Positions 836-42,886 of a stretch of 64,000 nucleotides of DNA are shown here, piece after piece. Below the pieces are notes generated by a model. The model was given only the letters and a program-made list of their open reading frames with translations. It was not told where the DNA came from and did not search any database. The stretch spans positions 343 to 64,342 of the forward strand of contig JAPLXB010000045.1 in the NCBI GenBank assembly GCA_026396285.1. Reading direction: 5' to 3'. A program made the translations under genes and the position numbers. Numbering within the stretch: position 1 is the stretch's first letter; every line of letters starts with the position of its first letter. Source of the DNA: Candidatus Micrarchaeota archaeon. GTDB taxonomy: Archaea > Micrarchaeota > Micrarchaeia > Norongarragalinales > JAPLXB01.

Positions 836-840
836 GCTTT

Positions 841-4759: not shown

Positions 4760-6007
4760 ATGAAAAAGCTTTTGCCAGCGCTCCTTGCCGCAGTCCTGCT
4801 CCTGCAGTTCGCAGCCGGGATTTCAAGCGCCGAGGCCGCTGCCGCTGTCGGCGAATACGTCGGGACGGACAACCTGGAGAAAATGGACATAATCGAGTCG
4901 CCGTTGGAATACCGCGAGACGCAGTACTACGTCTTCTACTATCCCCCGCCGCCGGTTTCAAAGAACAGGCTCGTGGCGGCAGTCGCGTCCAGCGGCCAGG
5001 CAGTGGACGGCGACGATTTGCTGGGCGCCATTGCGCTCTCGGCCCACAAGTACGCGGTGTGGCAGATTCTTGAATCCACGTACTACCTGTCTTTCGGGGA
5101 TTTTTCCGCGTTTTCAAGCGACTTCAGGAAACGCCTTGCCGCGGCCTCTCCGGAGGCAGTCATTTCCTCAATCCAGTCCACTTACCCGTCGGTGACCCTG
5201 CTCCAGGTTGAGGGAAAGCTTTCGCTCATGGAGGCGAAACTCGACCTGCTTTCAGAGGTTTTGGACCAGGGGATGGAAAAGAGGGCGGTGTTCACCACGC
5301 AATACGCTTCTGACGCGCTGTCAAACCTGTTCTCCCACTACGTGCGCACCTTCTCGTCCTTCAGGGAGTTCCTTGACGCGGCCGAAGCCTACCAGTCGGC
5401 GGTGCTTGACGCGCAGGACAAGGTGAGGAACTCTAAGAACCTCACTGTTTCCGAAAAAGAGAGCGTGCTCAAGGCGTTGTCCCCGCTTTATGACGCCGGG
5501 AATCCGGGAAAGTTCAAGGATTCCTTCAAGTCGGGCGCCGCTTACTACGATTCAAGCGCGCTTGACGCGGGAAAATGGGCGAACGACAGCGTGGAGGGCT
5601 TCCTGTTCCTCAAGGCGAAGGTGGACGCGCTCAACGCCTATGCCCAGGTGCAGCCCAGGGTCGGGCAGATGCTGTCCAACGAGTTCTCATTCAAGGCCTG
5701 CGCGCTCGCCGACGACTGGAAAAAGCTCTCGGACGCGTGGAAGAAGGTTGAGGCGCTGAAACTCAGGGCCACCAGGGAAGCGTACCTCAACATGTCCGCG
5801 AGGATGGGCGAAGCCGATTCAATGGCGGTTTCGCTGAACGACAAGTACTCGCGGTGCATCCAGGCCACGCCGACGCCGGCTGCCGGCGGTGAAACAAGTT
5901 CCCTGGTCCAAGCAGGCCTCGCCGTGGCCGTAATCGCTTTGATCGGCTTCGCCGGCTACCGGTACTACATGCAGAAGAAACAGGAACAGGAGGAGCGCGG
6001 AGAATAA
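4760..6007 (+). CDS. secreted protein with N-terminal signal peptide and C-terminal transmembrane anchor (about 415 aa from the ATG at 4760)
   Basis: After the internal Met the protein begins with the signal MKKLLPALLAAVLLLQFAAGISSAEA. The C-terminus carries a Thr/Pro linker (TPTPAAGGETSS), then the helix LVQAGLAVAVIALIGFAGY, then a short basic tail. This resembles an archaeal C-terminal sorting signal. The annotated upstream extension from 4694 lacks a signal-peptide context. Confidence 0.5.
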   Translation: MKKLLPALLAAVLLLQFAAGISSAEAAAAVGEYVGTDNLEKMDIIESPLEYRETQYYVFYYPPPPVSKNRLVAAVASSGQAVDGDDLLGAIALSAHKYAVWQILESTYYLSFGDFSAFSSDFRKRLAAASPEAVISSIQSTYPSVTLLQVEGKLSLMEAKLDLLSEVLDQGMEKRAVFTTQYASDALSNLFSHYVRTFSSFREFLDAAEAYQSAVLDAQDKVRNSKNLTVSEKESVLKALSPLYDAGNPGKFKDSFKSGAAYYDSSALDAGKWANDSVEGFLFLKAKVDALNAYAQVQPRVGQMLSNEFSFKACALADDWKKLSDAWKKVEALKLRATREAYLNMSARMGEADSMAVSLNDKYSRCIQATPTPAAGGETSSLVQAGLAVAVIALIGFAGYRYYMQKKQEQEERGE

Positions 6008-14563: not shown

Positions 14564-17500
14564 TTGATTGGGTGCAGGTGTGTTTTTGTGATGAAGGCGA
14601 TTTCAGGCATTGAATTCGGCGTCTTTTCCCCGGAGAACGTGAGGAAAATGAGCGCGGTCAAGGTCACCGTGCCGGACACCTACGACGAGGACGGGTACCC
14701 CATCAGCGGCGGGCTCGCCGACCAGCATCTGGGCGTCATTGACCCCGGCCTCAAGTGCAAGACGTGCGGCGGCAGGATGAAGACGTGCGGCGGCCACTTC
14801 GGCCACATCGAGCTCGTCCGGCCGGTCGTGCACGTGGGTTTCGCCAAGCCGGTTTACCTGCTGTTGCGCGCGACGTGCAGGAAGTGCGGCCGCGCCATGA
14901 CCGCGGAATCGATTGAAAAGGCGAAGCGCATATCCGAGTGCCCGCACTGCGGCGAGCAGCAGAAAACCATCAAGTTCGTGAAGCCGACGAGTTTCTACGA
15001 GGAGGACCGCAGGGTTCTCCCGAACGAGGTCAGGGAACGCCTTGAACGCATTACCGACGAGGATTTGGCCGCGTGGGGGATAAAGCTGAGGCCCGAGTGG
15101 ATGGTGCTCACGATCCTGCTCGTGCCGCCGGTGACTGTCAGGCCAAGCATCACCCTTGAAACCGGGGAAAGAAGCGAGGACGACCTGACCCACAAGCTCG
15201 TGGACATTTTGAGGATCAACCAGCGCCTCGGGGAAAACATTGACGCGGGAGCGCCCCAGCTAATCATAGAGGACTTGTGGGAGCTTTTGCAGTACCACGT
15301 TGCGACGTTCTTTGACAACGAGACCGCGGGAATCCCGCCGGCGCGCCACAGGTCCGGCAGGCAGTTGAAGACGCTTTTCCAGCGCCTCAAGGGCAAGGAA
15401 GGAAGGTTCCGCTACAACCTGTCCGGCAAGAGGGTCAACTTTTCCGCGCGCACGGTGATTTCGCCTGACCCGATGCTGGGGATAAACGAGCTCGGCATAC
15501 CGCAGGAAATCGCCAAGGAACTCACGCTGCCGGTGTCGGTCACCGAATGGAACAAGGAGAACATGAAGGAGCTGGTGAAGGCGAACGCGGAGAAGATAAA
15601 CTACATAATCAGGCCGGACGGACGGAGGAAGAAGCTCATTCCCAGCAACGTCGACGAAATCGTCGCCGAACTTGCGCCGGGTTACGTGATTGAAAGGCAG
15701 TTGATGGACGGCGACCTAGTGATATTCAACCGCCAGCCGTCCCTCCACCGCGTGAGCATGATGTGCCACTCGGTGCGCGTGCTGCCGGGCAAGACGTTCA
15801 GGTTCAACGTCGCGGTCTGCGCGCCGTACAACGCGGACTTCGACGGGGACGAAATGAACATCCACGTGCCACAGAACGAGGAGGCGCAGAGCGAGGCGGA
15901 CATACTCATGAAGGTGCAGGACCAGATTCTTTCGCCGCGGAACTCGGAGCCGCTCATAGCGCCGATACTTGACCAAGTGAGCGGGCTTTACCTCTTGACT
16001 ATTGACGGCACGACGTTCACTAGGGCGGAGGCGTGCTCGCTGCTCGCAAGCGCCGGCATCGTGGAGGAAGTGGGTGGCGACAAGACGACCGGCAAGGAAC
16101 TGTTTTCGTTCCTGCTTCCCAAGGGATTTAACGTCGAGTACGTGAACCGCAGCAAGGAGGCCGTGAAGATAAAGAACGGCAAACTGTTGTCCGGCCACGT
16201 GGACAGCAAGATAAGCGACCTGCTCACCAAGCAGATTTTCGACGACTTCGGTTCCGAGGCGGCAAGGAAATTCCTGGACGCGGCCACGAGGATTTCAACG
16301 GAAGTGATCACGCGCTACGGCCTGTCGCTCAGCCTCGAGGACTACCACCTCAGCGAGGAGGGCGTGAAGGAAATAAGGGACATCTGGCGCGACGGAAGGA
16401 AAAAAGTGAAATCCCTTGTCCAACAGTACCGCGAGGGGAAACTCGAGAGAAAGCCGGGGAAAACACTGAAGGAGACCCTCGAGGAACTGGTCATGAATGT
16501 CCTTGAGCACACGAGGGACTCGTGCGGCCACCACCTGCTCCACCACATCAAGCGCGTGCCGTTGAAGGCGTTCGGCGCGCCGGTCAACCACAATTCCGCG
16601 CTCCTCATGAGCAGGGCGGGCGCGAGGGGAAAGCTCCTGAACGTGGTGCAGATGGCCGCGCTCGTTGGCCAGCAGGCCGTGAGGGGCAAGAGGATGAAGT
16701 CGGGTTACAAGAACAGGATACTCCCGCACTTCAAGAAAGGCGACCTGGGCGACGACGCAAGGGGTTTCGTGAGCAGCAGCTACGTAGAAGGCCTTGACCC
16801 GCTCCAGTACTTCTTCCACGCGGCCGGAGGCCGCGATTCGGTCGTGGACAAGGGCGTCAACCCCGCGAAGACGGGTTACATGCAGCGCAGGCTCATCAAC
16901 GCCCTCCAGGACATGATGGTTACCCCGAGCCGCTGCGTCAAGGACGCGGAAGGCAGCATAATCCAGTTCAAGTACGGCGACGACGGAATGGACATCGCAG
17001 GCAAGCCCATTTCACCGGGCGAGCCGGTGGGAGTCGTGGCCGCCCAAAGCATAGGCGAGCCCGGCACCCAGATGACGCTGAGGACATTCCACTACGCGGG
17101 AGTCGCTTCACTGGCGCAGCTTGGTTTCACGCGCCTCGTCGAAGTCGTGGACGCGAGGAAGACGCCCAAGAACCCGGTCATGGAAGTTTACCTGAAAAAA
17201 GAGTATTCCAAGGACCTGGACAAGGTGAAGGCCATCGCCTCCAGCATAGAGGAGATAACGGTTGACAAGATTGCGTCGGTCAAGGAGGAGTTCTCGAAGA
17301 AACTAATCCGCATCACGCTCGACACCGACGCGCTGGACGAGATGAAGATAAAGCCCGAGGAAGTGACCGAGAAAATAAAGGCCATCGAGCCCGCGACCAC
17401 GCGCGACAAGAACGTGATAACGGTGAAGACAAAAGCAGAGGACTTGAAGAGCATAAGGAAGATAACCACGCGGCTCAAGGAAATGACGCTAAAGGGGATA

Positions 17501-17980
17501 AAGGGCATCGCGCGCGCCATCATCGTTGAAATGAACGGCGAACTGACGCTCGCCACCGAGGGAAGCAACCTTGAGGAAGTGTTCAAGATACCCGCAGTGG
17601 ACGCGGTGCGCACGAGCACGAACGACATTGTCGAGATATCCAAGGTGCTGGGCATAGAGGCTGCGCGCAACTCCATCATAACCGAGATAGTGAAAGTCCT
17701 CGATGCACAGGATTTGAAAGTGGACCTGAGGCACATCATGCTCATTGCCGACGCGATGACGCTCAAGGGCGAAGTGAAGTCAATCGGCCGCCACGGGCTG
17801 GCAGGCGAAAAGGCGTCTGTCCTGGCGCGCGCGGCGTTCGAGGAGACCGCGAAGCACTTGCTCAAGGCGTGCGTCTACGGCGAAAGCGACCCGCTGAAGG
17901 GGGTCACTGAAAACATAATCATCGGCCAGACCATTCCCTGCGGCACCGGGACAGTAAACCTGGAAATGGACGTCGACTAG
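14564..17980 (+). CDS. rpoA: DNA-directed RNA polymerase subunit A, unsplit (A' and A'' regions in one 1138-aa reading frame)
   Basis: N-terminal Zn motif CKTCGG..CGGHFGH. Catalytic NADFDGDEMN. Bridge helix AKTGYMQRRLINALQDMM. About 50 aa later, with no intervening stop, come the A''-specific AAQSIGEPGTQMTLRTFHYAGV and the C-terminal jaw/cleft. The probable true start is MKAISGIEFG at 14591. Confidence 0.85.
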   Translation: MIGCRCVFVMKAISGIEFGVFSPENVRKMSAVKVTVPDTYDEDGYPISGGLADQHLGVIDPGLKCKTCGGRMKTCGGHFGHIELVRPVVHVGFAKPVYLLLRATCRKCGRAMTAESIEKAKRISECPHCGEQQKTIKFVKPTSFYEEDRRVLPNEVRERLERITDEDLAAWGIKLRPEWMVLTILLVPPVTVRPSITLETGERSEDDLTHKLVDILRINQRLGENIDAGAPQLIIEDLWELLQYHVATFFDNETAGIPPARHRSGRQLKTLFQRLKGKEGRFRYNLSGKRVNFSARTVISPDPMLGINELGIPQEIAKELTLPVSVTEWNKENMKELVKANAEKINYIIRPDGRRKKLIPSNVDEIVAELAPGYVIERQLMDGDLVIFNRQPSLHRVSMMCHSVRVLPGKTFRFNVAVCAPYNADFDGDEMNIHVPQNEEAQSEADILMKVQDQILSPRNSEPLIAPILDQVSGLYLLTIDGTTFTRAEACSLLASAGIVEEVGGDKTTGKELFSFLLPKGFNVEYVNRSKEAVKIKNGKLLSGHVDSKISDLLTKQIFDDFGSEAARKFLDAATRISTEVITRYGLSLSLEDYHLSEEGVKEIRDIWRDGRKKVKSLVQQYREGKLERKPGKTLKETLEELVMNVLEHTRDSCGHHLLHHIKRVPLKAFGAPVNHNSALLMSRAGARGKLLNVVQMAALVGQQAVRGKRMKSGYKNRILPHFKKGDLGDDARGFVSSSYVEGLDPLQYFFHAAGGRDSVVDKGVNPAKTGYMQRRLINALQDMMVTPSRCVKDAEGSIIQFKYGDDGMDIAGKPISPGEPVGVVAAQSIGEPGTQMTLRTFHYAGVASLAQLGFTRLVEVVDARKTPKNPVMEVYLKKEYSKDLDKVKAIASSIEEITVDKIASVKEEFSKKLIRITLDTDALDEMKIKPEEVTEKIKAIEPATTRDKNVITVKTKAEDLKSIRKITTRLKEMTLKGIKGIARAIIVEMNGELTLATEGSNLEEVFKIPAVDAVRTSTNDIVEISKVLGIEAARNSIITEIVKVLDAQDLKVDLRHIMLIADAMTLKGEVKSIGRHGLAGEKASVLARAAFEETAKHLLKACVYGESDPLKGVTENIIIGQTIPCGTGTVNLEMDVD

Positions 17981-20573: not shown

Positions 20574-23500
20574 TCAGACGCCGTGCTTCTTCGCCTGCGT
20601 CTCCACCTTCTGGGTGAGGGACTCCATGTAAATGTCCACTATGTTGAACGCGCCTTTCTTGAGCTTGTCGCGGACGATGTTCAGTTCCAGTTCAAGGTCA
20701 AGCACGTCCACTCCCTTCGCTTTTATGGCGGCAACCTTCTCCTCCAGCACCTCTATCCGCTGGTTGTACTCGTCGTACTTCTGGAGCTCGGTTTCCGAAA
20801 GGCGGACGATGTTGTGCTGCAGCGCCCTGTAGGTCACGAAGTACGGCGCGCCCCTGTTGTACTCGGGGTTGTGCATCATGCCGCTCCCGATTGCGGACCG
20901 GACGATGCTCCTCGCGGTCTCGTCCCCGAACTTGGTCCTGATACGCTCCAAGTCGCCCTCGTACTTGGTGCGCATCTGGATTTCCGTGGAAATGTTTGCC
21001 TTGATTTCGCCCACGAAGTCGCTCAGCACCTGCGAAATGAGTACCAGGCCCAGGCCCCATTTCCTGTACTCCCTCGCCGCCCGCTCTATCTGCACGAGGC
21101 CCTCGCCGCTTCCCCCGAACTTGGGCAGCAGGCGGTGGACTTCGTCGTAAACGAACAGCACCTTGAGCTTCGGCGACTCCTCGGGCTGGCTGGCAAACAC
21201 CTGCTTGACCGTGTTGGCGTAGAAAGAGTCAACCTGCTGCGGCGTCAGCCGCGAAGTGACGAACACCGTTATTTCGCCGGGCCTCGTCAGTTTCTTGAGG
21301 TCAACCTGCTGGTCGGCGTTCTTGACTACGACGATGTTCCCGTCAAAGGCGCGCGCCTCGCTCAGCGACATCCCGAACTTCTTGTACGCCGCCAGCATCT
21401 CCCTGTTCTTCTGCGGCCTCAGGAAACCGCTCCACTGCGCGGTCGGGTCAAAGACGACCACCGCGATGCCTTTCTTGAGCGCCTCTTCCGCAATCACCTG
21501 CGCCGCCACCGTCTTTCCGGACCCGCTTCCTCCCGCGACCAGCGTGTGCATAGTGAGTTTTTGGAAGTCCACGAACGCCCGCACGTTCGTTTCCGCGATG
21601 AGGCCGAGGAACCCGCCGTCGGGCCCTGGCTGGGGCAGCGTCGCGAAGTCAATTTTCGACAAATACCTTTTCATCTTCGCCTTCTGGTACCGGTCGTAGT
21701 AAGCGTAACTCGTGCCGGCGGTCACTGCGGCTCCGGCGAGCAGCAGGTAGAACAGCGGGACGCCCATGAAACGCATTTCAAGCAGGCCAATCTGCACCTT
21801 GATGTTCGCGAACGCCGAAATCGCGCGCGTCGTGTTCAGGACAAGCCGGTAGTAGGCGGTCGCCTTGAGCATGTAAGTGCCGACCGCAAGGTCCGGCGGC
21901 ACCGTGATTGACTTCGTTATAGTCTGCGAGCTCTCGAACTCAAACGGGTCCCCTGACTCGAAAACCACCGCGTCAGTGTCGTAGTTTATCAGGTAGAGCC
22001 TGACGATGCCGCTGACGCTCTTGGTGGCGCCGGTGTTGAACAAGTTGAGGTCCACCTTGAAACTCTGGCCCGGCGACACGTCGGTCTGGTACGGGACTAG
22101 TTTCAAGTCAATGAACTTCTCCTTCGTCTCGCCAACGCGGATGGTGACTGGCATTACCGCCAAGCCGAGTTCGTTAGTGAAAATAATCTGGCCGTAGTAC
22201 ATGCCTGGTTTTGTGTCCTCGGGGATGCTGATTGCGGCCATTACCTCCGCGGTCTCTCCCGGCGCAAGGGTAACCGAAGGCCTGACCGAGAAGAACGGGA
22301 CCGTGTCGCCGGTCGCCTGGATTGCGACGGTGGTCGCGGAAGCGTTCTGGATGTTCTTCACGCGCAGGGTGACCATCGTCTCCTCGCCAAGGAGCAGTTC
22401 GAGGTAAATGGTCTGGGGATAAATATCGAGCCCGATTTTGTTCTCCATTCCTCCGGTCAGGTTCAGGACGGCTTCCAGCGTCTCGTTCGTGGAGTTCAGT
22501 ATCTCTCCCTTGGCCTGGGAAATGATTTTCTGGACTTCCTTCGCAATCTCCTCGAGCGACGGCCCGATTGCCCCCACCGCCATCGCCGGGGGAGCGGTAT
22601 ACCCTGGCTGAGCCCCTCCACCGCCGCCGTAAACGGTGACGTACGTCGCCCCGGGCGCCACGCCCAACACGCTCTCGCCGGCAGCGTAGGCGCTGAAACC
22701 GGTTATGACCACGGTTATCGAGCCCGGCATCCCTCCCTGCCTGCCGACGACGTTCGTCAACGAAATCCAGCCGCTCGGGCACGCGAGCGAAGTGAAGCCC
22801 CAGTCCGCGCACCGCGCCACGAACACGTTGTCAATGTTGTCGACCTGGGTCACGTCAAACGGCAGCGCCAGCGTGCCCGAAAACGACGGCGCCGGACGGC
22901 CGTCGGTGTAACTGAAGTTCAGCGCGAGGATGAACAGTTTCCTCATTGACGGCACGAGCGCCGCGTACACCGGAACCGAGTCTATGCCGATTGAAAGGTT
23001 CTCCATCTGCGAGAACGACACGCCCGACAACACGAGCGTCGCGTTCAACGCCTTTATCACCACGTCATAGGTCCTGTTGTAGACGTTGACCGAATAGTGG
23101 CCGGTCGCGTTAGTTGAGAAATTCGAGACTGTGACGTTTGTGCCGGGCCTGAGGAGCGTGAAGTTCGTCACCGTCCCCCCGCCAACGGAATTGGCTATGC
23201 GGCCCACGAAGTTCGCGATGTTGTAATAAACCTCGAACGGCGCGGAAACGTTGCGCTGGTTGCCGTCCAAGTCAGTCGCGGACACGACTGCGGTGTACCC
23301 GCCCAGGATGGAGAAGTTGGACGAGACCCTCCACGTGCCGCTCACAGTGTTCCCTGAAACCAGTGACATCGTGTGAGTGGTCACGGTGCTGTCCGGCCAC
23401 GTCACGAACGCGGTGACAGTCGAAACCTGCCTGTTGTCGGAAACGGCGGCTGAAACCACTGCGTTGCTTCCCTGCTGCGCGTCCGTGGTCGTCACGCTCA

Positions 23501-26500
23501 CCGACGGCTGCGTGATGTCCTTGTAGTAGAGGATTGACGCGTTCCTTCTGGTGAATATAACCGGCCCGTTCGGCGACGAGTAGTTTCCAATGACTACGAA
23601 ATCATAGAACTGCGCGTCGGTCTTGGACGGCGCAGTGAACGAAAGGATTTTGGAACTGCCCGCCGCGGTCATGTTGACTTGCGAGGCTTCGGTGTCGTTG
23701 ACGAACACGCGGTAGGTGACGTTTTCCGTGATGTCCGCCGGCGTGTAAAAGTCCACGAGCCGCACGGTGGCGTTGATTGAGTCGCCGGGAATGATTTGCG
23801 GCGGTGCGGAAACGCTTTCCAATAGTATTCCGTAGAAGAACGAGTTGAATGAGATGTTGACTTGCTTGTTGCCACTGCTTTCATTCACCTGCAGCACTCC
23901 TGCATAGTGGGCGTTGGTCTCATTGGCAGTGTAATTCATGCGAATGGCGAACGACTGGCCGCCTGAAAGCGACGTGGACGAGTCGAGCAGGTTCGCGAAC
24001 GTCGTCATGTTTCCAAACAGCCCGAACTGGAAGTTCAGGAACGCGTCAGCGGTACCGGTGTGCGTGATGACCGTGTCGCTGTTGACCTTGTTCTCGTTCG
24101 ACACCGCGTTTATGACCATGGTGTCGCGGCTGAGCGACCAGGAATAGTTCAAAGGCGTCACAACGTTTGCTGTGAATCCCTTCGTGTAGCCCGTTCCCTG
24201 CACGCTGCACGAAAAGCTCCTGCCCCCGACTCCCCCGCTGGAGGACACGCCATAGTCCACTCCGACGGTCGTGGATATGTTCACCGGGTTGTCCAAGGCG
24301 ACTGTCCGCGGCGAAGGCGAATAGGAAACCGTGACATTGGGGCTGATTGACGTGGTGGAGACTGCGAATGGAACGTTGTCGTTGCCCGTCGCCTCTACTG
24401 TGAGGTTTTGCACCGTGCTGTGGCCGTGCTCGATGGTCAGCGAAGCCGGGAACGTGACGGTGAAGTTCGGGTTGGACAAGACGCTTATCAAAACCGGGGA
24501 TGCCGTGTAAATGCCGCTGACGCCGTTCGGATTAACCCACTTGACTATTGGGTTGAAGTAGTAGGTTCCAAGGGCCCTGGGCGGCACGCTGACGTTGACG
24601 AACGTGCTGAACCAGCCCGGAGCGAGGTTCGCGTATGAAAGGTTCGTGTAACTGAAGCCGCTCGTGTTCGCGCCGCTGAACGAGCCGGTCACGTTCACCG
24701 AATAGCCCTTCACGTTGCCGCCGTTTACGATGAGAAACGGGATGGAAACGTTCTTTCCAACTGATTTCGTCACGTTCGCGACGCTCACCGCCTGGCCCGA
24801 GGCATTAATGTTCGTGGTGGGAACCACTTGGAACGAGAACTGCGTGGAATTAAGCTGGCCCGTGACGTCATTCACTCCAAAGGTCACGGCGTAGTCGTAA
24901 ACTCCCGTGATGTTCGTGTTGCCGAAGTCCACGTAAAACCTCCTGACGTCCTTGCAGAGGCCGCCGCAGTAGATGTCCGGGTCCTCCCAGTCGCTTGGGG
25001 GCGCAAAAGACCAGGAATAGCCGGGGGCCGTGACGTTGAAGAAGGCGGTCGAAGCGTTCAAGCCGTTGATTTCGTCGTCCGTGGCCCACACCTCAAGGGT
25101 GACGGACTTGTTGAATTCGACGAAACTCCTCCTAACTCCTTCCGTGATTGTTGACACGTTTATGAACTGGGGCGGCGCGTTGCTGACGTTGAAGAACACG
25201 TAAACGTCCCTGTTCGTCGGGTCCGCGGAACCGCTTTGCAAATGCGCCCTGATGCCATACCCGGGGGAGGCGTTGCTGCTCTCCTGGCCACTCTGGCCGA
25301 AGCAGATGTTTACAGAAGAGCCTTTTGAAACGGAAACCGTGTTGTTGTTGCAGTTGACTCCGCCGATGTTGATGTTCGGGCCGCACGTGCCTATGTAAGT
25401 GCAGTTCTTGTACCCGGGAACCGCGTCATACGACACCGAAAAGGTCAGGTCGATGTTTCCCGGGTTTTCAATGGTGTAATTTGCTATGATTCCCTTCTGG
25501 TTCAGCGCGAACGCGTTGGACTGGTTCGCGGACGGCACGATGACCCACGACGCGTTCGTGAGGACGTTGACGTTCACTTGAAGCGACTGGTTCACGTCCT
25601 GGCTCCCAGAGTAATACCCGGTCGTGTTCAGGAATCCATGGTATGCGCCGGGCGCCGCCTGGGCCGGGACCGACACGCTGAACGTCACGGTCTTCGTCGA
25701 GCCGGAGTTGGGAATCTTGGTGAAGCTCGTCCACTGGCTCGGGGAGAAGGAAATCCAAGAGGAGTTTATGGCGGTGGCAGTGAAGTTGTTGTTGACCGGG
25801 CCGAGCACAACGTTCCCGTCATTCGTCACCCCGATGGCTATTGTCTGCGACTGTCCCGGATACAAGTTCATGTCGAGCGAGGGAGTGATGTTGTATGACA
25901 GGTGCTTCGTCACCGCGCCGCCGATTTGCGTGGATGTGGTTATTGTCGTGTTGGATAAGTCGTTGTTCGTCCACGTCCCGTTCCAAGTCACCTGGTAATA
26001 CTGGCCCGGATTCAGCCCGGCGGGCAGCGTGACGTTGAAAACGCTGTAACAGTTGCCGCTCTGGATGAGTATGGCGCCGCACGTGGTGCCAAGTTCCACG
26101 ATAGACTCCATTAAGCCTATCTGGGACACGCCGATGTCCGGGTACGTCATGTCCGCCTTGTTGCTGTTGTTAAGACTAACAGTGATGTTCACTGAATAAG
26201 GCACGCTCGGCGTGTCAACGGTCGCGGGCGCGTTGAGCGTCCCGTCCGCCAGCTGTTCCTGGAACCAATCCTGGCCCGCCTTTTCTGCATAATCGTATTT
26301 CGTGCTGCTGTTGATGCCGGTCGCGAGTCGCCGGTCGAGTTGTAGAGCGTGATGCTCCGGGCGCCGTTCAACTGCGGCGCTGCCGACGCGTTGACCCACG
26401 TGATGTAAACCTCGTTCAGGAACGGCGTCTTGGAAGAGTCGTTTGAAGCGAAAACCGCGCGGTACCTCAGGTAACGCGAAACCGGTGCCTTGGCGAAGTC

Positions 26501-26633
26501 GCCGTAAAAGCCGCCGTACGCGGCAATCGTGGAAGAATTCGAATAGGAGTCGAGGGGCGTCCACTTGTAACTGTTGTTCGACGACGACGTGTACATGGTG
26601 ATGTTCGTTCCCGGCGGCTCGGTCGTCCACCAC
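20574..26633 (-). CDS. giant surface protein, C-terminal portion (ORF 2 of 2): Asn/Thr/Ser-rich Ig-like region, transmembrane helix, cytoplasmic HerA/FtsK-superfamily ATPase
   Basis: The first ~100 aa of the ORF (MVDDRAAGNEHHHVHVV...) are out-of-frame junk. Genuine sequence starts at ...ATGINSSTKYDYAEKAGQDW. A single hydrophobic helix GVPLFYLLLAGAAVTAG lies near the C-terminus. It is followed by a 379-aa cytoplasmic domain with Walker A LVAGGSGSGKT (21510..21533), Walker B VLFVYDEVH (21135..21158), and an arginine-finger region REYRKWGLGLVLISQ typical of DUF87/HerA/VirB4-like ATPases. Confidence 0.8.
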   Translation of the reverse strand: MVDDRAAGNEHHHVHVVVEQQLQVDAPRLLFEFFHDCRVRRLLRRLRQGTGFALPEVPRGFRFKRLFQDAVPERGLHHVGQRVGSAAVERRPEHHALQLDRRLATGINSSTKYDYAEKAGQDWFQEQLADGTLNAPATVDTPSVPYSVNITVSLNNSNKADMTYPDIGVSQIGLMESIVELGTTCGAILIQSGNCYSVFNVTLPAGLNPGQYYQVTWNGTWTNNDLSNTTITTSTQIGGAVTKHLSYNITPSLDMNLYPGQSQTIAIGVTNDGNVVLGPVNNNFTATAINSSWISFSPSQWTSFTKIPNSGSTKTVTFSVSVPAQAAPGAYHGFLNTTGYYSGSQDVNQSLQVNVNVLTNASWVIVPSANQSNAFALNQKGIIANYTIENPGNIDLTFSVSYDAVPGYKNCTYIGTCGPNINIGGVNCNNNTVSVSKGSSVNICFGQSGQESSNASPGYGIRAHLQSGSADPTNRDVYVFFNVSNAPPQFINVSTITEGVRRSFVEFNKSVTLEVWATDDEINGLNASTAFFNVTAPGYSWSFAPPSDWEDPDIYCGGLCKDVRRFYVDFGNTNITGVYDYAVTFGVNDVTGQLNSTQFSFQVVPTTNINASGQAVSVANVTKSVGKNVSIPFLIVNGGNVKGYSVNVTGSFSGANTSGFSYTNLSYANLAPGWFSTFVNVSVPPRALGTYYFNPIVKWVNPNGVSGIYTASPVLISVLSNPNFTVTFPASLTIEHGHSTVQNLTVEATGNDNVPFAVSTTSISPNVTVSYSPSPRTVALDNPVNISTTVGVDYGVSSSGGVGGRSFSCSVQGTGYTKGFTANVVTPLNYSWSLSRDTMVINAVSNENKVNSDTVITHTGTADAFLNFQFGLFGNMTTFANLLDSSTSLSGGQSFAIRMNYTANETNAHYAGVLQVNESSGNKQVNISFNSFFYGILLESVSAPPQIIPGDSINATVRLVDFYTPADITENVTYRVFVNDTEASQVNMTAAGSSKILSFTAPSKTDAQFYDFVVIGNYSSPNGPVIFTRRNASILYYKDITQPSVSVTTTDAQQGSNAVVSAAVSDNRQVSTVTAFVTWPDSTVTTHTMSLVSGNTVSGTWRVSSNFSILGGYTAVVSATDLDGNQRNVSAPFEVYYNIANFVGRIANSVGGGTVTNFTLLRPGTNVTVSNFSTNATGHYSVNVYNRTYDVVIKALNATLVLSGVSFSQMENLSIGIDSVPVYAALVPSMRKLFILALNFSYTDGRPAPSFSGTLALPFDVTQVDNIDNVFVARCADWGFTSLACPSGWISLTNVVGRQGGMPGSITVVITGFSAYAAGESVLGVAPGATYVTVYGGGGGAQPGYTAPPAMAVGAIGPSLEEIAKEVQKIISQAKGEILNSTNETLEAVLNLTGGMENKIGLDIYPQTIYLELLLGEETMVTLRVKNIQNASATTVAIQATGDTVPFFSVRPSVTLAPGETAEVMAAISIPEDTKPGMYYGQIIFTNELGLAVMPVTIRVGETKEKFIDLKLVPYQTDVSPGQSFKVDLNLFNTGATKSVSGIVRLYLINYDTDAVVFESGDPFEFESSQTITKSITVPPDLAVGTYMLKATAYYRLVLNTTRAISAFANIKVQIGLLEMRFMGVPLFYLLLAGAAVTAGTSYAYYDRYQKAKMKRYLSKIDFATLPQPGPDGGFLGLIAETNVRAFVDFQKLTMHTLVAGGSGSGKTVAAQVIAEEALKKGIAVVVFDPTAQWSGFLRPQKNREMLAAYKKFGMSLSEARAFDGNIVVVKNADQQVDLKKLTRPGEITVFVTSRLTPQQVDSFYANTVKQVFASQPEESPKLKVLFVYDEVHRLLPKFGGSGEGLVQIERAAREYRKWGLGLVLISQVLSDFVGEIKANISTEIQMRTKYEGDLERIRTKFGDETARSIVRSAIGSGMMHNPEYNRGAPYFVTYRALQHNIVRLSETELQKYDEYNQRIEVLEEKVAAIKAKGVDVLDLELELNIVRDKLKKGAFNIVDIYMESLTQKVETQAKKHGV

Positions 26634-29600
26634 TTAACCAAGTCCCAGTTCACTGCTTCGCCGGCGTCAATCGTGTGCTCGTAGTAGCCGGCAGTGTTCC
26701 CGGTTGAGAGGTTGATGTTTCCGGAGTTTATGGAGACGCTCGCATTCGAATAAGTTCCGCCGGTCCAGTCCGCGGAACCCGTTTCGGTGATGGTGTTGTT
26801 GGCCCACGAGTCGTTCCAGTAATACGCGCTGACGTTCACGTGCACGCCGCCGATGTCACTCCAAGTGGCGGTCTTGGCGAAGCCCGCAACCGTCGGCGGC
26901 GCCCAGGCGAAGAACGGGTCGGGCGAGTAAGTGCCGCTGCACTGGCGGCACGTGCGAGTGAAATTGATTGTGCCGTTTGTCCCGCTGCCCGACGGACTAT
27001 ACCCGCCGAGGGCGGTAACTGGACCGTAGTAAAGCAGCGAGGAGAACAACGCGTTTATTTTTCCGGCGTTACCGCCCGTGACAGTACTCCCGCCTTGTCC
27101 GCCGTTCGCATCAATAGTCTCAAAAATCAGCATGGTTCCGGTAAGGTTTACTGTCACGTTTCCTCCATTTCCTCCATATACCTTCCACTCAGTACTGCTG
27201 GCGCCGCATACCTTAATTTGATGCAAGTATGCGGTCTGTCCAGTCAACTCTACAGTTCCACCCGACCCGCAAACACTGGCAACAGTCCCACCACTATTCC
27301 ATCCCACGGCGCCAGTCGAAGTTATCGTCGTCAAGTTTATCGTCTGCGCCGCCACCCTAATCGCTCCTCCTGAGCCGCCATAGCCAGCATAGCCGCCAGC
27401 GCCAACGCCGTCTCCGCCAATTGATTTTATTTCAGTCCCATTTATCGCCTGGGCGATTACTGTAATGTTTCCAGTCCCTCCGCCATACGAGGTGCCAGCG
27501 CCATTCGTGCACTGCGCATAGCCTCCGACTGATTGAATGATCCCTAAGACCAGGATTTGAGACGAATTCATTAGTATGTTGCCTCCGCGCCCGCCATGGG
27601 CAAAGGAATATGTCCCGCTTGTGCTGCCGTAAGCGGCGCCTCCGCTCGAAGTTATGTTTGCCACTACGGTCTGCTGTGTGGAATTAATTGTTATAATTCC
27701 GCCTGAACCTCCATGGGGGTTGCCGCCGCCGGTATGATACGCTGACCCGCCATTAGACCTGACTAAGGTCGTTACGGTTATCGTCGGCGCTATCAGTTCG
27801 ACATTTCCTCCATCAGGCCCATAAACATCAAGTGGAGTGCCGTAGGAATACAAACCGGCTGAAACGTCTATTTGGGAAAGCCTAAGCGAACTGCCGGCGT
27901 TTATGTTCACGTCGCCTCCTTTGCCAGCGAGATAGTCGACTGCGCCGTTGGAATTGCCTCCGTTCGCGTTAACCGACGCCGCGGTGACATTGCCGGTCGC
28001 GTTTATTTTCAACGGGCCCCCCGGGCTGCCGGCTGTGGTTATCGTCGTGGCGTTTACCGAACCGTTCGCGTTAAACCTCACCGTTCCACCCGAACCGTAA
28101 CCGTAGGACGCACCAGATCCTCCTGATGTTGTTATTGTGCCCGCGTTTATTGTTCCGTTCGCGTTTATTGTGAGGTTTCCTCCCGCCCCCCCGAAGCCAT
28201 AGCCCGCTCCTCCTGTTGACGATATTGTTGAAACGTTTACTCCCCCGCCCGCGTTTATCGTGACCACGTCGGCATTACTCCCATCAAAAGCCGGAATAGC
28301 ACCATTTTTCGCTCCTCCGTCTGCAGCAATTGAATTGACTGTGACCTGGCCTGTTGCATTTATTGTCACTGCCCCTCCCTGACCAGTGTAGTACAGGCCG
28401 CCCTCGCTCGCCGTTCTAATGTTCGTGACTGTTACTGAGCCGTTCGCGTTTATCGTCAGCGGCCCTCCCGAGTAGCTTCCATCGTTGGCTGACGTGCCTG
28501 TTCTAGTTCCTGTTCCTATGTTCGTGGCTGTTACTGAGCCGTTCGCGTTAATCGTCACCGGCCCTCCAGAGCCGCCGTAGAAATCGGAGAGCTGCCCGTC
28601 TTCGGTTGATATCGTCGTGACGTTTATCGCGCCGTTCGCGTTCAGCGTTACGCTCCCGCCGCTGGACTGGTACCGGCCGCCGGCTCTCGCACTTATCAGG
28701 GAAGCTTTTATCGTGCCTGACGTGTTTATTTCAATGGAGCCACCATTCCCCCCGCCGGAGTTAAATTGTGAGCGGTTGCCGCCCATCGCCGTTATCGTGG
28801 TCACGTTCACTGGGCCGCTAGCGTTTAGCCTGATGCTTCCTCCAGACCCTGGATTATCCGGACCGGTTATGCCTGATGCGGTTATTGTCGTGCCGTTAAT
28901 TTGCTGCGCGTTTATGTCAATCGTGCCTCCATAATTGCCACGGCTCCGCGCGTCTATCGACGCTACATTGACCGCGCCCGTCGCGTTGATATAGACATTT
29001 CCCGGTAGTCCGTAACCGCTGAAAACAGTGTACTGATTTACTGTCGTTATCGTTCCTGCATTTATTGTCTGTGCAGTCAGACTGACATTTCCACTTCCTC
29101 CTGCTGCAGCGCCGTTTTTCTTGGTGGTGTCTATCGCATCCGGGTTTAAGGAATTTGCCCTGATTAAAAGATTGGTGCTGTGCGCGGTTATGCTGCCGGA
29201 GAACGTGTCCGAGGCATTCAAATGAACGTCTCCATAAGCCGGAATGCTTTGACTGCCGGTGAAGAAAAAGTTGCTGAAGGCCATGTTTGTTGAGTTGATG
29301 CCCAGCGGGTTCGAATCATGCCAAAACGACGATGAATAAAACGAGGCGTTCTGGTTCACCTGGAGCGACAGCGCCCCCGCAGAGTATACTGTCGCGCCGC
29401 CCGAGACGTTCAGGTACTCGTATGTCCTCGTCGCGGCCGCCATGTTGCACTGGATTCCATAGATTTTCGCGTTCGAGCCCTGGGCAGGCCCGCAGTTGAG
29501 CGAGTCGGGCTCGAGCCACGGCACGGCGTTAAATGACGGGTTGTTCGCGTAAAGCACGCTCGTGTCGTTTCCCTGCCAGTTGGGGAGGGTGAAGTAATAC

Positions 29601-31867
29601 GCGTCTGCCCCGGTCCAAGAGCCTCCTGGCGAGAACGACGTGGCGGCGAGGGAAACATTGACTATGTACCCGGTGCTGCCACTAACTACAGCGGTGGAGG
29701 AAAACGACGCGTTGGCCGCGGAAATGTCGATGTTGCCACCAGGGGAGGACCTGATAGTCCCCGCCTGATTGTAGTTGTTCGCAAAAAACCTTATCGAGTG
29801 AAGGTAGCCGCCTGACCCTTCGCCAACGAATCCGCCGTTTTCTATCGTCACGTTGCCGGAGAAATTGAAAGTGTGCGTGGTGTCGCTAACAAGGCCCGAG
29901 GTCCTGGTTATCCCCGCCCCGTTTTTGACGACGAGGTTGGTTCCGTTTATCGCGTAGTTTACGACCCTGATGTAGTGGAATTGGGTTATGTTGCACGTGT
30001 CCCCTCCCTCAAGGCTTCCTTGGTCGCACGCGAACACGGGAATCGTGAACTGGTCGATGAGCGAGAAGCTTGCATACCCGGTTTTTGAGCACGTGACGTT
30101 AAAGGACGCCGCGCCGTTCAGGTTGTTGGGGTTGACGGTCTTGTTGTACTCGTAAAGGCCCGAGGAGGCGTTGTAAGCCATGCTCGCGTCCGCGGCCCAC
30201 GAGCCGGCCGAGTTTTCGGAAAACAGGCACGTTGCGCCAGTGACTGGGTTGCCGGCAGCGCCCGTGTAATTCGCGTAAAACACTGGCTGGCGCGAGTAAT
30301 TCAACTGCTGTGCGATTGGGAGGTTTTCCATCGAGTCCCAAATCGCGAGGGCGGACGAGTAGTTTATCTGGAATGATACGTTGCTGACGACCGGGCTGGC
30401 CTGCGTGGAGTTGCTCGTGAGGTACATTTTGTACCGCATGTACCTCGCCTGGATTGGGGCCGAGGACGCGCTGGTTATCGCCTGGCCCGACGACGTGTAA
30501 TAGGCGGTCGGGTCAGCGAGCGGCCCGTGCCAGCCGTTCCACGTTACGCCATTGACTGAGTAATTGAGCTGGAAACTGAGGGCGGTGCCCGCCGGCACCA
30601 TGGCGTTGTAGAAGATTTTTTCCCACCTAACGCTGCTGCCGGCGTCGAAAGTGCTTGACTCGTAAGTGCCGTTCAGGTAATACCCCGGCGAACCGGTCGG
30701 GGTGTATGTCCACGTTTCGCCGTTGTTGCCGGTGGCGTTGTTTCCGCCGAACATGAGGAAAATCTTTTGCGCCGCGTAATACGCCATCGAGTGGTTCGCG
30801 CGCACAGGCGGCGGCGCCGGGTAAGTCACGTCAGACCACGTGTCGCCTCCCACGTCATAGGTGCGGATTGAATCAAGGTAACTTGCGCCGGTGTATCCGC
30901 CGAATTCAAGGAAAAGCCCCTGGTCTTGGTCAAACAACATTGTGTGGAACGCTTTCGCCCCCCCGGCTGCTTTCGCTCCCCAGGCGTTGGTGTTTGAATA
31001 GTATTCGCGCGTGTCGCTCAGGTAATCGGTTCCGTTGTATCCGCCGTCGAGTATGAACGTGCCTGAAGAAGTGGAGTATTCAAGCGCTGCGCCATAACGC
31101 GGCGAAGGCCAGTTTACTCCGAACGTCGTGTAGTTCACCCACGTGTTCTGCGTGAAATTGAATGCCCACAACTCGTTGAAAACGTTGGTGCCGTTGGTCC
31201 CGCCGAACAAGAAAATCGACTGGTTGGAGCCATGGTAAGCCATCGAGTAGTGATAGAGGGCTGGCGGGGATGCGGCGGGGCTGAGTAGCGTCCACGTGTT
31301 GTCCGAATAATTATAGGCCCACGTGTCGCTGAAAACGTTGGTGCCGTTCGTTCCGCCGAAAAGTATGATCCTGCCGCTGAGCGGGTCGTAAACCATTTTC
31401 ATGCCATAGCGCGGGGACGGGGCCGTGGACGGGTTGCGGTCAGTCCAGTTGTTGTTTGTGGAAAAATTATATGCCCGCGTGTCATTCAACGGGCCTGTGC
31501 CGTAGCCTCCGAACAACACCATGATTGCGGCGTTGTTTTCATAAGCCATTGCAAACGAGTTCCTGTCCGACGGCGAAGCCGCGGGCGTGAACTGCGTCCA
31601 GTTGACGAACTGCTTGAGCGTGAGGTTAGTGACTGAAACGTTCATCGTGTTGCTGAACGTGCCTTGGGTCCATTTCGCGGTGTCCTGGGACAGGTTTTTC
31701 AACGGCCCCTCCGCCATGAACAATCCGGTCACGGGGATGTTCACGCCCTCGAAATACTGGTAGAACAAGCCGATGCCGGCGACCACTGCGGCGCACGCTA
31801 ACACGATGGCAAGCCTCTTAGCCCACGGACTCTTGTTTCCACGTTTTTGGGGGGACATGCAGCCCAC
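26189..31867 (-). CDS. giant surface protein, N-terminal portion (ORF 1 of 2): signal anchor, Kelch beta-propeller, then Gly-rich beta-helix-like repeat array
   Basis: Signal-anchor helix LAIVLACAAVVAGIGLF. Five or six Kelch-like blades with F/LFGG and W-x-Y motifs (aa ~95..390). About 650 aa of ~30-aa repeats of the form GG.GG.VTINANG.V.VT.I.T. N-x-S/T sequons throughout. The last ~45 aa of this ORF (RPASTAARNTIMQKRRARIG...) are Arg-rich out-of-frame read-through. The true continuation is in the overlapping frame of the next ORF. Confidence 0.8.
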   Translation of the reverse strand: MGCMSPQKRGNKSPWAKRLAIVLACAAVVAGIGLFYQYFEGVNIPVTGLFMAEGPLKNLSQDTAKWTQGTFSNTMNVSVTNLTLKQFVNWTQFTPAASPSDRNSFAMAYENNAAIMVLFGGYGTGPLNDTRAYNFSTNNNWTDRNPSTAPSPRYGMKMVYDPLSGRIILFGGTNGTNVFSDTWAYNYSDNTWTLLSPAASPPALYHYSMAYHGSNQSIFLFGGTNGTNVFNELWAFNFTQNTWVNYTTFGVNWPSPRYGAALEYSTSSGTFILDGGYNGTDYLSDTREYYSNTNAWGAKAAGGAKAFHTMLFDQDQGLFLEFGGYTGASYLDSIRTYDVGGDTWSDVTYPAPPPVRANHSMAYYAAQKIFLMFGGNNATGNNGETWTYTPTGSPGYYLNGTYESSTFDAGSSVRWEKIFYNAMVPAGTALSFQLNYSVNGVTWNGWHGPLADPTAYYTSSGQAITSASSAPIQARYMRYKMYLTSNSTQASPVVSNVSFQINYSSALAIWDSMENLPIAQQLNYSRQPVFYANYTGAAGNPVTGATCLFSENSAGSWAADASMAYNASSGLYEYNKTVNPNNLNGAASFNVTCSKTGYASFSLIDQFTIPVFACDQGSLEGGDTCNITQFHYIRVVNYAINGTNLVVKNGAGITRTSGLVSDTTHTFNFSGNVTIENGGFVGEGSGGYLHSIRFFANNYNQAGTIRSSPGGNIDISAANASFSSTAVVSGSTGYIVNVSLAATSFSPGGSWTGADAYYFTLPNWQGNDTSVLYANNPSFNAVPWLEPDSLNCGPAQGSNAKIYGIQCNMAAATRTYEYLNVSGGATVYSAGALSLQVNQNASFYSSSFWHDSNPLGINSTNMAFSNFFFTGSQSIPAYGDVHLNASDTFSGSITAHSTNLLIRANSLNPDAIDTTKKNGAAAGGSGNVSLTAQTINAGTITTVNQYTVFSGYGLPGNVYINATGAVNVASIDARSRGNYGGTIDINAQQINGTTITASGITGPDNPGSGGSIRLNASGPVNVTTITAMGGNRSQFNSGGGNGGSIEINTSGTIKASLISARAGGRYQSSGGSVTLNANGAINVTTISTEDGQLSDFYGGSGGPVTINANGSVTATNIGTGTRTGTSANDGSYSGGPLTINANGSVTVTNIRTASEGGLYYTGQGGAVTINATGQVTVNSIAADGGAKNGAIPAFDGSNADVVTINAGGGVNVSTISSTGGAGYGFGGAGGNLTINANGTINAGTITTSGGSGASYGYGSGGTVRFNANGSVNATTITTAGSPGGPLKINATGNVTAASVNANGGNSNGAVDYLAGKGGDVNINAGSSLRLSQIDVSAGLYSYGTPLDVYGPDGGNVELIAPTITVTTLVRSNGGSAYHTGGGNPHGGSGGIITINSTQQTVVANITSSGGAAYGSTSGTYSFAHGGRGGNILMNSSQILVLGIIQSVGGYAQCTNGAGTSYGGGTGNITVIAQAINGTEIKSIGGDGVGAGGYAGYGGSGGAIRVAAQTINLTTITSTGAVGWNSGGTVASVCGSGGTVELTGQTAYLHQIKVCGASSTEWKVYGGNGGNVTVNLTGTMLIFETIDANGGQGGSTVTGGNAGKINALFSSLLYYGPVTALGGYSPSGSGTNGTINFTRTCRQCSGTYSPDPFFAWAPPTVAGFAKTATWSDIGGVHVNVSAYYWNDSWANNTITETGSADWTGGTYSNASVSINSGNINLSTGNTAGYYEHTIDAGEAVNWDLVKWWTTEPPGTNITMYTSSSNNSYKWTPLDSYSNSSTIAAYGGFYGDFAKAPVSRYLRYRAVFASNDSSKTPFLNEVYITWVNASAAPQLNGARSITLYNSTGDSRPASTAARNTIMQKRRARIGSRNSWRTGRSTRPRPLTRRACLIQ
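26950..29000. repeat. in-frame tandem repeat array (~30-aa Gly-rich beta-helix-like units) within the giant gene
   Basis: At least 20 successive units such as GGSVTLNANGAINVTTISTEDG, GGPVTINANGSVTATNIGTG and GGAVTINATGQVTVNSIAADGG. The DNA is correspondingly repetitive (many GGx GGx ... ACC ATC AAC GCx runs) and generates the spurious antisense ORFs at 27872..28126 and 28617..28934. Confidence 0.6.
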
Positions 31868-42674: not shown

Positions 42675-42722
42675 CCACTATGTGAAACAATCAATATAAA
42701 CCGCGGCCCTCTTTTTCTTACC

Positions 42723-42886
42723 GCCGGGGTGGCAGAGCGGTTATTGCGCCAGAACCTTTTCTTTCTTCCGAAGAAAGTAAAGCTTCACCAAAAGAAAGAA
42801 GGATTTAGGCGAACCTTGAGGCCGCTTCGCGGCAGGGGAGCTGGTGTCCCTCACGGGACGCGGGAGTTCGAATCTCCCCCCCGGCG
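42723..42886 (+). tRNA. class II (long variable arm; Leu/Ser-type) tRNA interrupted by an intron of about 80 nt; anticodon not resolved by eye
   Basis: Acceptor GCCGGGG (42723..42729) pairs perfectly with CCCCGGC (42879..42885), with discriminator G. D-arm is GCA...TGC. Intact T-arm GGGAG TTCGAAT CTCCC. Variable-arm hairpin GTCCC-TCAC-GGGAC. The segment 42751..42809 is homologous to the intron of the tRNA at 706..835. Confidence 0.5.

Follow-up and report, generated by a model that had tools for sequence, protein, structure and literature searches.

Two tRNA introns of a Micrarchaeota archaeon are built on one hairpin module, a candidate mobile palindromic element

We analysed a 64,000-nucleotide stretch of Candidatus Micrarchaeota archaeon (GenBank assembly GCA_026396285.1, contig JAPLXB010000045.1, positions 343 to 64,342 of the forward strand), hereafter the window, with coordinates counted from its first letter. 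Sequence reading combined with in silico splicing identified positions 42723..42886 on the plus strand as a class II tRNA-Ser(UGA) gene with two introns, the larger of which is built on the same short hairpin module as an intron in the T-loop of a tRNA-Asn(GUU) gene elsewhere in the window. This hairpin module is a real family, with copies in tRNA introns, in rRNA introns and outside genes, across several archaeal phyla. The module is probably a small mobile palindromic element, which would be tolerated in stable-RNA genes since the splicing endonuclease removes it. How archaeal tRNA and rRNA genes gain introns is an old open question, for which similar introns in Thermoproteales have been the sole genome-scale clue so far; the unit described here is small, sharply defined and easily searched, and occurs both inside genes, as predicted introns, and outside them.

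The structure of the tRNA-Ser gene is secure. A first-pass annotation, made from the sequence of the window alone, had drawn the gene with exactly these bounds and had described an acceptor stem, D arm, variable arm and T arm around about 80 nt of extra sequence. All of these parts were seen again: a 7-bp acceptor stem (GCCGGGG/CCCCGGC) with discriminator G, a D arm, a long variable arm (UCCC-UCAC-GGGA) and a T arm (GGGAG-UUCGAAU-CUCCC), with 79 nt of extra sequence in mid-gene. The same annotation suspected more than one intron, and there are indeed two, of 61 nt and 18 nt; it is because the gene carries both that an intact anticodon arm was not visible by eye. Intron limits were first set by manual reading of the sequence, followed by ARAGORN on the spliced form. 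Removal of 42753..42813 and 42821..42838 leaves an 85-nt product, called by ARAGORN as tRNA-Ser(UGA) with a normal cloverleaf. Exon 1 contributes the 5' strand of the acceptor stem, the D arm and the initial four bases of the anticodon stem; the anticodon UGA (42817..42819) lies inside a micro-exon; and exon 3 supplies the 3' strand of the anticodon stem, the long variable arm, the T arm, the 3' strand of the acceptor stem and the discriminator G, with CCA not encoded in the gene. The TATA-like box AATATAAA upstream is a putative promoter, judging by the usual archaeal promoter spacing (Table 1). Without its intron mode ARAGORN returned zero tRNAs in the window, in intron mode it miscalled the tRNA-Ser locus as a tRNA-Ala with a single intron, and Rfam matched only the 5' part of tRNA-Asn as a tRNA. 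The hairpin element makes standard tRNA finders overlook essential genes of such genomes, both tRNAs of the window being either missed or miscalled.

Intron-less orthologues provide a direct view of the exons. Scanning metagenome contigs with the 3' 25-mer of tRNA-Ser yielded 33 loci (loci outside the window are designated by L and a number), several of which are intron-less tRNA-Ser(UGA) genes. One of these, L143, is 85 nt long and differs from the spliced form of the window gene by a compensatory anticodon-stem pair and a few variable-arm bases, and others, including L138, L139 and L142, have an anticodon arm (CCAGC-CUUGAGA-GCUGG) identical to that of the predicted spliced form. Since intron-less orthologues match the predicted exons, both tRNA-Ser junctions are right and both introns are lineage-specific; ARAGORN and the orthologues agree on the intron-bearing class II tRNA that the first-pass annotation had proposed. 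One locus (L154) is also syntenic with the window, with an EF-1alpha gene at 75% nucleotide identity and an adjoining S10 gene, and its tRNA-Ser is intron-less. The site of the tRNA-Ser intron is filled in the window, whereas the orthologues, this syntenic one included, have it empty. Relatives of the window EF-2 gene (L116-L120) were considered as another route to synteny, and no tRNA was found within range of them. In one further locus (L131, ~2000..2077), unrelated sequence precedes a partial tRNA-Ser that consists of the 3' half, starting at the anticodon loop; this could be either a scar of integration or a split gene.

The two tRNA-Ser introns differ in how closely they follow the bulge-helix-bulge (BHB) motif. 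An explicit pair list gives intron 2 a strict hBHBh' motif, in which h has 5 bp (the anticodon stem), H has 4 bp including one G-U (C32-G, U33-G, U34-A and G35-C), h' has 4 bp, and the bulges are AG|G and GG|A. For intron 1, the central helix H is formed by exon CGCC (42747..42750) and intron GGCG in four Watson-Crick pairs (C42747-C42750 with G42808-G42811), all of which are in the minimum free energy (MFE) fold, with bulges AG|A on the 5' side and AA|C on the 3' side. Its h' is a long intron helix in which AACC and the U-rich strand are paired with an A/G-rich distal arm, and the fold loses 3 kcal/mol when this arm is blocked. No outer helix h forms on the exon side, and the motif of intron 1 is a relaxed one. 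Because the CGCC strand includes two anticodon-stem bases, the motifs of introns 1 and 2 are mutually exclusive, and the two introns would therefore be spliced in order. For both tRNA-Ser intron 1 and the tRNA-Asn intron the splice-competent fold is the MFE fold, an alternative fold of the module introns being only 3-4 kcal/mol less stable.

We infer that the pre-tRNA-Ser would be cut by the archaeal splicing endonuclease, which in Micrarchaeota is probably of the broad-specificity epsilon2 type, and that the exons would then be joined by an RNA ligase. The epsilon2 assignment follows from the Micrarchaeota affiliation of the window, the best named relatives of its EF-2 being Candidatus Micrarchaeota at 70-77% identity, and from the enzyme of ARMAN-2. 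No endonuclease gene was noted in the window, of which 10 ORFs were scanned, no search aimed at it having been made. In the ARMAN-2 (Micrarchaeum) study, tRNAs of this archaeon are described as heavily interrupted by introns, and its epsilon2 endonuclease as cutting relaxed motifs at 59/60 (PMC3239211).

The relative of tRNA-Ser intron 1 lies in the T-loop of tRNA-Asn. Two placements of this intron are equally tRNA-compatible, namely 766..822 if it is inserted at 59/60 (T-loop UUCGAGU) and 765..821 if at 58/59 (T-loop UUCGAAU). The 59/60 reading has hBHBh' geometry with one G.G in H, its pair list comprising the T stem, H = UUCG/GGAA, a 10-bp intron helix and bulges AG|G and AA|U. Downstream of the module come a distal arm made of an A-run and GGUU (807..816) and then GGAA (817..820), which pairs with exon UUCG. 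In tRNA-Ser, the first G of the module is exon base 30.

Within the 64-kb window, the 15-mer AAAGCTTCACCAAAA has exactly two occurrences (796..810 and 42779..42793), and allowing up to two mismatches returned the same two matches only, against 0.17 expected by chance. The identical 15-nt core that the first-pass annotation had seen in both introns is thus real, although the coordinates it gave for the first copy were 1 nt too low. Its description of the two introns as collinear also held, with GAACC, a T-run, the core, a purine run and GG(A/T)T following one another in the same order in both. A covariance search for the intron unit, which that annotation had suggested, was run on the window (model R1) and scored the tRNA-Asn module at 50.6 bits (E = 1e-9) and the tRNA-Ser module at 45.1 bits (E = 2e-8), both well above the next best match at 15.3 bits, setting aside a 17.7-bit reverse-strand match to the Asn copy itself (766..803). 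The large introns of tRNA-Ser and tRNA-Asn are, as had been proposed, related sequences of one family found in different tRNA species and at different positions (30/31 and the T-loop, respectively). The annotation called such introns in different tRNAs unexpected; similar ones had in fact already been reported in Thermoproteales (Fujishima et al. 2010, as summarised in PMC4033280).

A pattern scan of one genome per species listed at least 115 stretches, none overlapping the window and about two thirds of them unrelated bacterial coding sequences. Among those listed, 40 are archaeal copies with a hairpin, which share one architecture (GAACC, a U-run, a variable stem-loop, an A-run, then GCUUC-ACC-AAAA) and have different, internally complementary stems. 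The archaeal copies among these matches come mostly from Micrarchaeota, including Bilamarchaeaceae and Norongarragalinales, the other hosts listed being Woesearchaeota, Nanoarchaeota, Parvarchaeota, Altiarchaeales, Thermoplasmata, a Methanosarcinales metagenome-assembled genome (MAG), Thermoproteota, and the haloarchaea Halolamina and Halarchaeum. We aligned 50 copies, namely the tRNA-Ser module and 49 others. In this alignment 85.4% of cells are paired, compared with 75.4% in shuffles, and the covariation score is 0.200, compared with 0.060 when shuffled, a value as high as that observed having arisen in 0 of 500 shuffles. At the fourth pair of the outer stem, 44 of the 50 copies have a C.C mismatch, and compensatory variants of this stem include GGACC/GCUCC, CCACC/GCUGG, UAACC/GCUUA and AAACC/GCUUU, further variants being GCAGC/GCUGC, GAAGC/GCUUC, GAAAC/GUUUC and CAAGC/GCUUG. 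Inner segments fold far better than shuffles, with a median z of -3.5. In the non-canonical introns, the module is followed by a distal arm (A-run and GGUU) pairing with AACC and the U-run, next by four bases that can pair with the exon immediately upstream of the splice site, and finally by two bulge bases. Rfam, searched at gathering and E-value thresholds, returned no family for the module and only spurious miRNA-like hairpin matches, and a literature search with the module motif and keywords found no description. The hairpin module, and its spread into rRNA introns, outside genes and across phyla, appear to be undescribed.

Copies of the module occupy a wide range of genomic contexts (Table 1). 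In addition to the anticodon-stem copy of the window tRNA-Ser, at 30/31, copies were found in introns of Gly, Ala, Leu, Val, Arg and Ser tRNAs of other MAGs, where they sit in the T-loop, in the D-loop or at 37/38. Those in rRNA introns are usually sense and sometimes antisense. For the 23S rRNA copy in L045, joining the exons on either side restores the conserved rRNA sequence that is expected there, with H = GUAC/GUAU, while the 16S rRNA intron with the antisense copy in L060 splits ...AUUAGAU|ACCCCGG... and has its own BHB formed from other bases (H = UUAG/CUAA). At least 6 copies are spread over 5 contigs of a single MAG, one hairpin subtype (UUUUUUGGG...CCUAAAAA) recurs among different MAGs in D-loops, T-loops and 16S rRNA, and intergenic, tandem and nested copies exist. 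An automated splice-and-scan with ARAGORN across the copies was noisy and missed hosts with several introns.

Table 1. Positions of the tRNA genes, introns and module copies discussed in the text. Coordinates refer to the window; copies in other genomes are given by locus.
Feature	Position or locus	Strand	Basis or remark
tRNA-Asn(GUU) gene with 57-nt T-loop intron	707..836	+	Rfam (5' part); ARAGORN on spliced form
tRNA-Asn hairpin module	766..810	+	GAACC, U6, GC...GC, A6, GCUUC-ACC-AAAA; pair list
TATA-like box AATATAAA, putative promoter	42693..42700	+	~23-30 nt upstream of tRNA-Ser 5' end
tRNA-Ser exon 1, 30 nt, positions 1-30	42723..42752	+	In silico splicing; matched by intron-less L143, L154
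tRNA-Ser hairpin module	42752..42793	+	GAACC, U4, stem CUUUCUU/AAGAAAG, A-run, GCUUC-ACC-AAAA
tRNA-Ser intron 1, 61 nt, non-canonical 30/31	42753..42813	+	Junction fixed by intron-less orthologues
Intron 1 distal arm GAAAGAAGGAUU	42794..42805	+	With the last A's of the module pairs AACC and U-run (h'); MFE folds
GGCG, 3' strand of intron 1 central helix	42808..42811	+	Pair list; MFE fold
tRNA-Ser micro-exon CCUUGAG, 7 nt, positions 31-37	42814..42820	+	In silico splicing; orthologues
tRNA-Ser intron 2, 18 nt, canonical 37/38	42821..42838	+	Pair list; intron-less orthologues
tRNA-Ser exon 3, 48 nt, positions 38-73	42839..42886	+	In silico splicing; orthologues
Module copies in 23S rRNA introns	L045, L111		
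Module copy in 16S rRNA intron	L050		
Module copy in 16S rRNA intron, antisense	L060		
Module copies inside tRNA genes, antisense	L084, L032 (variant), L007/L115		
Module copies 1-3 nt after tRNA genes	L046, L075, L109, L112		
Module copies at or overlapping stop codons (haloarchaeal)	L029, L031, L034		
Module copy abutting 5' end of intron-less tRNA-Ser	L154		Opposite strand

Several of these loci have features of their own. In the syntenic locus L154, a variant module (176..233, plus strand) overlaps the first base of the intron-less tRNA-Ser, which is on the opposite strand and is left without an obvious TATA box, and a palindrome GAACCUUUC...GAAAGGUUC (~255..325) stands beside it. The Bilamarchaeaceae 16S rRNA gene of L060 (5260..7915, minus strand) is 2656 nt long compared with a 1478-nt model and has, besides an insertion of several hundred nt, at least 7 of ~43-101 nt; among these small ones, one is the antisense module, and the others are unrelated or distantly similar hairpins. 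At L080 (3850..4081), an intact tRNA gene has two tandem repeats of its own first 26 nt upstream of it, each with a hairpin module after it, as though insertion or recombination had taken place more than once at this tRNA. Halarchaeum salinum L029 has 2.6 tandem copies of a 120-nt unit (391..701) with the variant CCACC...GCUGG-ACC-AAAA, ~190 nt downstream of a standard module that abuts the stop codon of a gene with a translated 3' end that, read by eye, is similar to ribosomal protein S19e. Two tRNA genes of one MAG (L097, ~5691..5729, and L101, 131..169) have an identical T arm and an identical 39-nt T-loop module, their distal arms being different, which suggests homing or gene conversion between tRNA genes. 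Finally, L112 contains a group I intron in the 23S rRNA gene of a Micrarchaeota MAG (3158..3431), and the same rRNA operon has a hairpin module after its spacer tRNA-Ala; group I introns in archaeal rRNA have already been reported (PMC6125680).

Module copies were also found outside archaea. A scan of viral contigs identified one 35.5-kb contig (IMGVR_UViG_3300045825_000703, comprising L122/L124) with at least 8 copies, all on one strand, some of them tandem or nested and one extending an open reading frame (ORF) in frame. Genes on this contig include those for a fused type IIA topoisomerase, for C2H2 zinc-finger proteins and for DUF5832, and by this content it looks like a giant virus. A minimal form (GAAGC-U-run-A-run-GCUUC-ACC-AAAA) was found in Thermococcus, one Micrarchaeota MAG, viral contigs and Komagataeibacter, and recurring prophage-like viral contigs also carry it, with the same palindrome as Komagataeibacter. 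The copies on the giant-virus-like contig and those of the minimal form may be homologous to the intronic element, or may be convergent A/T-centred palindromes caught by the 16-mer search; a plasmid collection queried with a haloarchaeal copy gave no match. The palindrome in question, GAAGCTTTTTGGAAAAAGCTTC followed by ACCAAAA, was seen in Komagataeibacter (L003, L043) and in viral loci L162, L168, L188, L194, L242, L251, L257, L258, L260 and L270, often just after a second A/T-centred palindrome, and the prophage-like contigs that carry it are plausibly linked to acetic-acid bacteria. The core is not a signal specific to tRNA introns, given that the module also occurs antisense, in introns of rRNA, behind tRNA genes, at the stop codons of protein genes and on the giant-virus-like contig, and this distribution comes close to the generic repeat that this annotation had itself set against its proposal.

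The reading we favour takes tRNA-Ser intron 1 and the tRNA-Asn T-loop intron as two copies of one small palindromic element. We propose that such an element would spread at the DNA level and insert in either orientation, and that its copies would persist in intergenic DNA as well as in tRNA and rRNA genes where the long stem and four exon-complementary bases can build a BHB, an insertion of this kind presumably being spliced out and hence harmless. What leads to this reading is the large number of copies, the variety of host sites, the presence of both orientations, the intergenic, tandem and nested copies, and the site that is empty in a syntenic relative. The first-pass annotation had offered three possible origins for the core, and among them a mobile intron remnant fits best, no evidence having been found for a recognition element of a processing factor or for a regulatory module. 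A broader proposal, in which the hairpin element is active, spreads horizontally across archaeal phyla and the giant-virus-like contig, and makes new BHB introns, is one we put forward tentatively and at somewhat less than an even chance. On that view the element would be to archaea what introners are to eukaryotes, and intron gain would have in it a source that is direct and open to testing. In intronic copies GAACC and the U-run face an A-run and GGUU(C), an arrangement that might pass for terminal inverted repeats and extends to as much as 15-25 bp in L084 and L122; the right arm is absent from free-standing copies. A GAACC repeat flanking the Ser intron was considered as a target-site duplication and rejected, since the pre-insertion sequence that it implies is not a valid tRNA and the orthologues show the real junction.

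Several observations weigh against a mobile element. No transposase was noticed in the ORFs scanned, no systematic search having been made, and neither a target-site duplication nor any other sign of how insertion might occur was found, the flanks of intronic and intergenic copies being without a direct repeat; such complementarity as the flanks of intronic copies have is inverted and corresponds to the H helix. Simple insertion does not explain the four exon-pairing bases, which call for post-insertion selection or some other mechanism. About 10 free-standing copies, oriented like the gene before them, start 0-3 nt from a tRNA 3' end or a stop codon, and this gene-end regularity hints at a function there instead of random insertion. 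Sense and antisense copies stand at roughly 23 to 5. Intron 1 of tRNA-Ser is not a strict BHB, with 5 unpaired bases between h' and H and a 5' splice site that is weakly paired in the MFE fold (5' bulge with UUU). In addition, the search patterns required the conserved ends, so that the invariance of these ends across phyla is partly a matter of ascertainment. If the element is indeed mobile, it would provide a concrete system for observing intron birth and would help explain the fragmented rRNA and tRNA genes of DPANN archaea.

Alternatively, the module could be a functional RNA under selection, acting either as a processing or stability signal (an ACCA-tailed minihelix-like hairpin) or as a splicing switch, an explanation that we consider unlikely. 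Its conserved ends and its stem covarying across several archaeal phyla would suit such a role, but the conservation is partly a product of the search pattern, no Rfam family matches, and a candidate binding factor has not come to light. The ACC-AAAA directly after the stem is reminiscent of a discriminator followed by CCA, RNA boundaries (5' splice site, tRNA 3' end, stop codon) fall at the 5' end of the module, and competition between the proximal arm and the distal arm that the BHB requires, with folds 3-4 kcal/mol apart, is what a switch might use; yet copies lie antisense in a 16S rRNA intron and in tRNA genes, and close as well as syntenic tRNA-Ser orthologues do without the intron.

We give little credence to a gene-end element, whether a compact bidirectional terminator or a 3'-end hairpin, whose intronic copies would be secondary captures. 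Archaeal termination needs only oligo-T, and the module offers one T-run on its top strand and two on its bottom strand, but the U-run precedes the hairpin in both orientations, unlike in known hairpin terminators, and we know of no role for GAACC or GCUUCACC in archaeal termination. Free-standing copies do lie no more than 3 nt from stop codons (L029, L031, L034, L122, L124) or from tRNA 3' ends (L046, L075, L109, L112), in the orientation of the upstream gene; most Micrarchaeota copies listed are nevertheless intronic, and a terminator would be harmful in essential tRNA and rRNA genes.

Lastly, it is highly improbable that the tRNA-Ser is a dead gene disrupted by insertions and that it resembles the Asn intron through low-complexity chance: the locus defeats standard tRNA finders and intron 1 has no strict BHB, but the exons are intact and near-identical to intron-less orthologues with a compensatory difference in the anticodon stem, the BHB motif of intron 2 is perfect, the TATA-like box is at the expected distance, and two exact copies where 0.17 matches are expected, scores of 45-51 bits and covariation speak against chance.

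Other identities were considered and rejected. Neither intron has the C box (RUGAUGA) of a C/D-box small RNA, a lone CUGA in the hairpin loop of the Asn intron being a chance occurrence, and no Rfam match supports this class. Lengths of 57-61 nt, the absence of an ORF and the lack of a match to any Rfam intron family exclude a group I or homing-endonuclease intron. Integron attC sites, IS91/Helitron and IS200/IS605 elements and K-turns did not fit by their defining sequence features, and mimicry of the anti-Shine-Dalgarno sequence (UCACC) and similarity to 16S helix 45 were judged coincidental.

A mobile palindromic element of this kind has parallels in known systems. It would be like introners and spliceosomal introns derived from miniature inverted-repeat transposable elements in that a short non-autonomous repeat enters genes, is tolerated there by supplying or co-opting the signals for its own splicing, and gives rise to many related introns; eukaryotic introner elements are reportedly the subject of Huff et al. 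2016 and Gozashti et al. 2022. The module introns differ in that they would rely on an endonuclease and a ligase instead of the spliceosome, and in that neither a terminal inverted repeat with target-site duplication nor, in the ORFs scanned, a transposase was identified; we do not claim membership. With repetitive extragenic palindromic (REP) sequences and their REP-associated tyrosine transposases (RAYT), IS200/IS605-derived elements and Rickettsia palindromic elements, the module shares a conserved hairpin, short conserved flanks, many and also tandem copies, no target duplication and no need for terminal inverted repeats. Rickettsia palindromic elements are also found inside RNA and protein genes. 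Unlike in typical REPs, the inner stem of the module differs between copies of one genome; no tyrosine HUH transposase was found, no search aimed at one having been made, and the relation is one of analogy only.

Among archaeal introns, the transposed clusters of Thermoproteales (Fujishima et al. 2010, Mol Biol Evol 27:2233) offer another likeness. As summarised in PMC4033280, these are similar introns in different tRNAs and at different positions, read as transposition and recent gain. In contrast to those clusters as summarised there, the hairpin family occurs in DPANN archaea (Micrarchaeota), and its copies are also found in rRNA introns, in intergenic DNA, in antisense orientation, on a giant-virus-like contig and in other phyla. 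BHB introns that are non-canonical or several to a gene are already well known, ARMAN-2 included (PMC3239211). Such introns, which those of the window resemble, are protein-spliced, can number up to three per tRNA, use positions such as 59/60 and the anticodon stem, and occur in lineages with an endonuclease that accepts relaxed motifs; ARMAN-2 has T-loop introns at 59/60. The ARMAN-2 introns tested were short (13 and 25 nt), whereas the large introns of the window are built on a conserved hairpin module, and a search of the text of that study for a conserved intron sequence found none. An archaeal tRNA-Trp intron that houses a C/D-box guide RNA, mentioned in PMC12558985, similarly combines a conserved structured RNA with a tRNA intron released by BHB splicing. 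The module differs from it in that antisense copies exist, and its introns have no C box and showed no guide complementarity to their host tRNAs.

Beyond its tRNA genes, the window encodes RNA polymerase subunits, EF-2, EF-1alpha and Orc1/Cdc6, 10 of its ORFs having been scanned. RNA polymerase subunit A is a single ORF (14564..17980, plus strand) with Rpb1 domains 1-5, ~1135-1149 amino acids long when relatives are included; a single-ORF subunit A is also present in L116 (4059..7466) and L120 (861..4310), while most archaea have it split into A' and A''. In the window, two separate ORFs (11140..12693 and 12721..14562) encode subunit B. Two very long ORFs lie back to back on the minus strand (20574..26633 and 26189..31867), coding for 2019 and 1892 amino acids.

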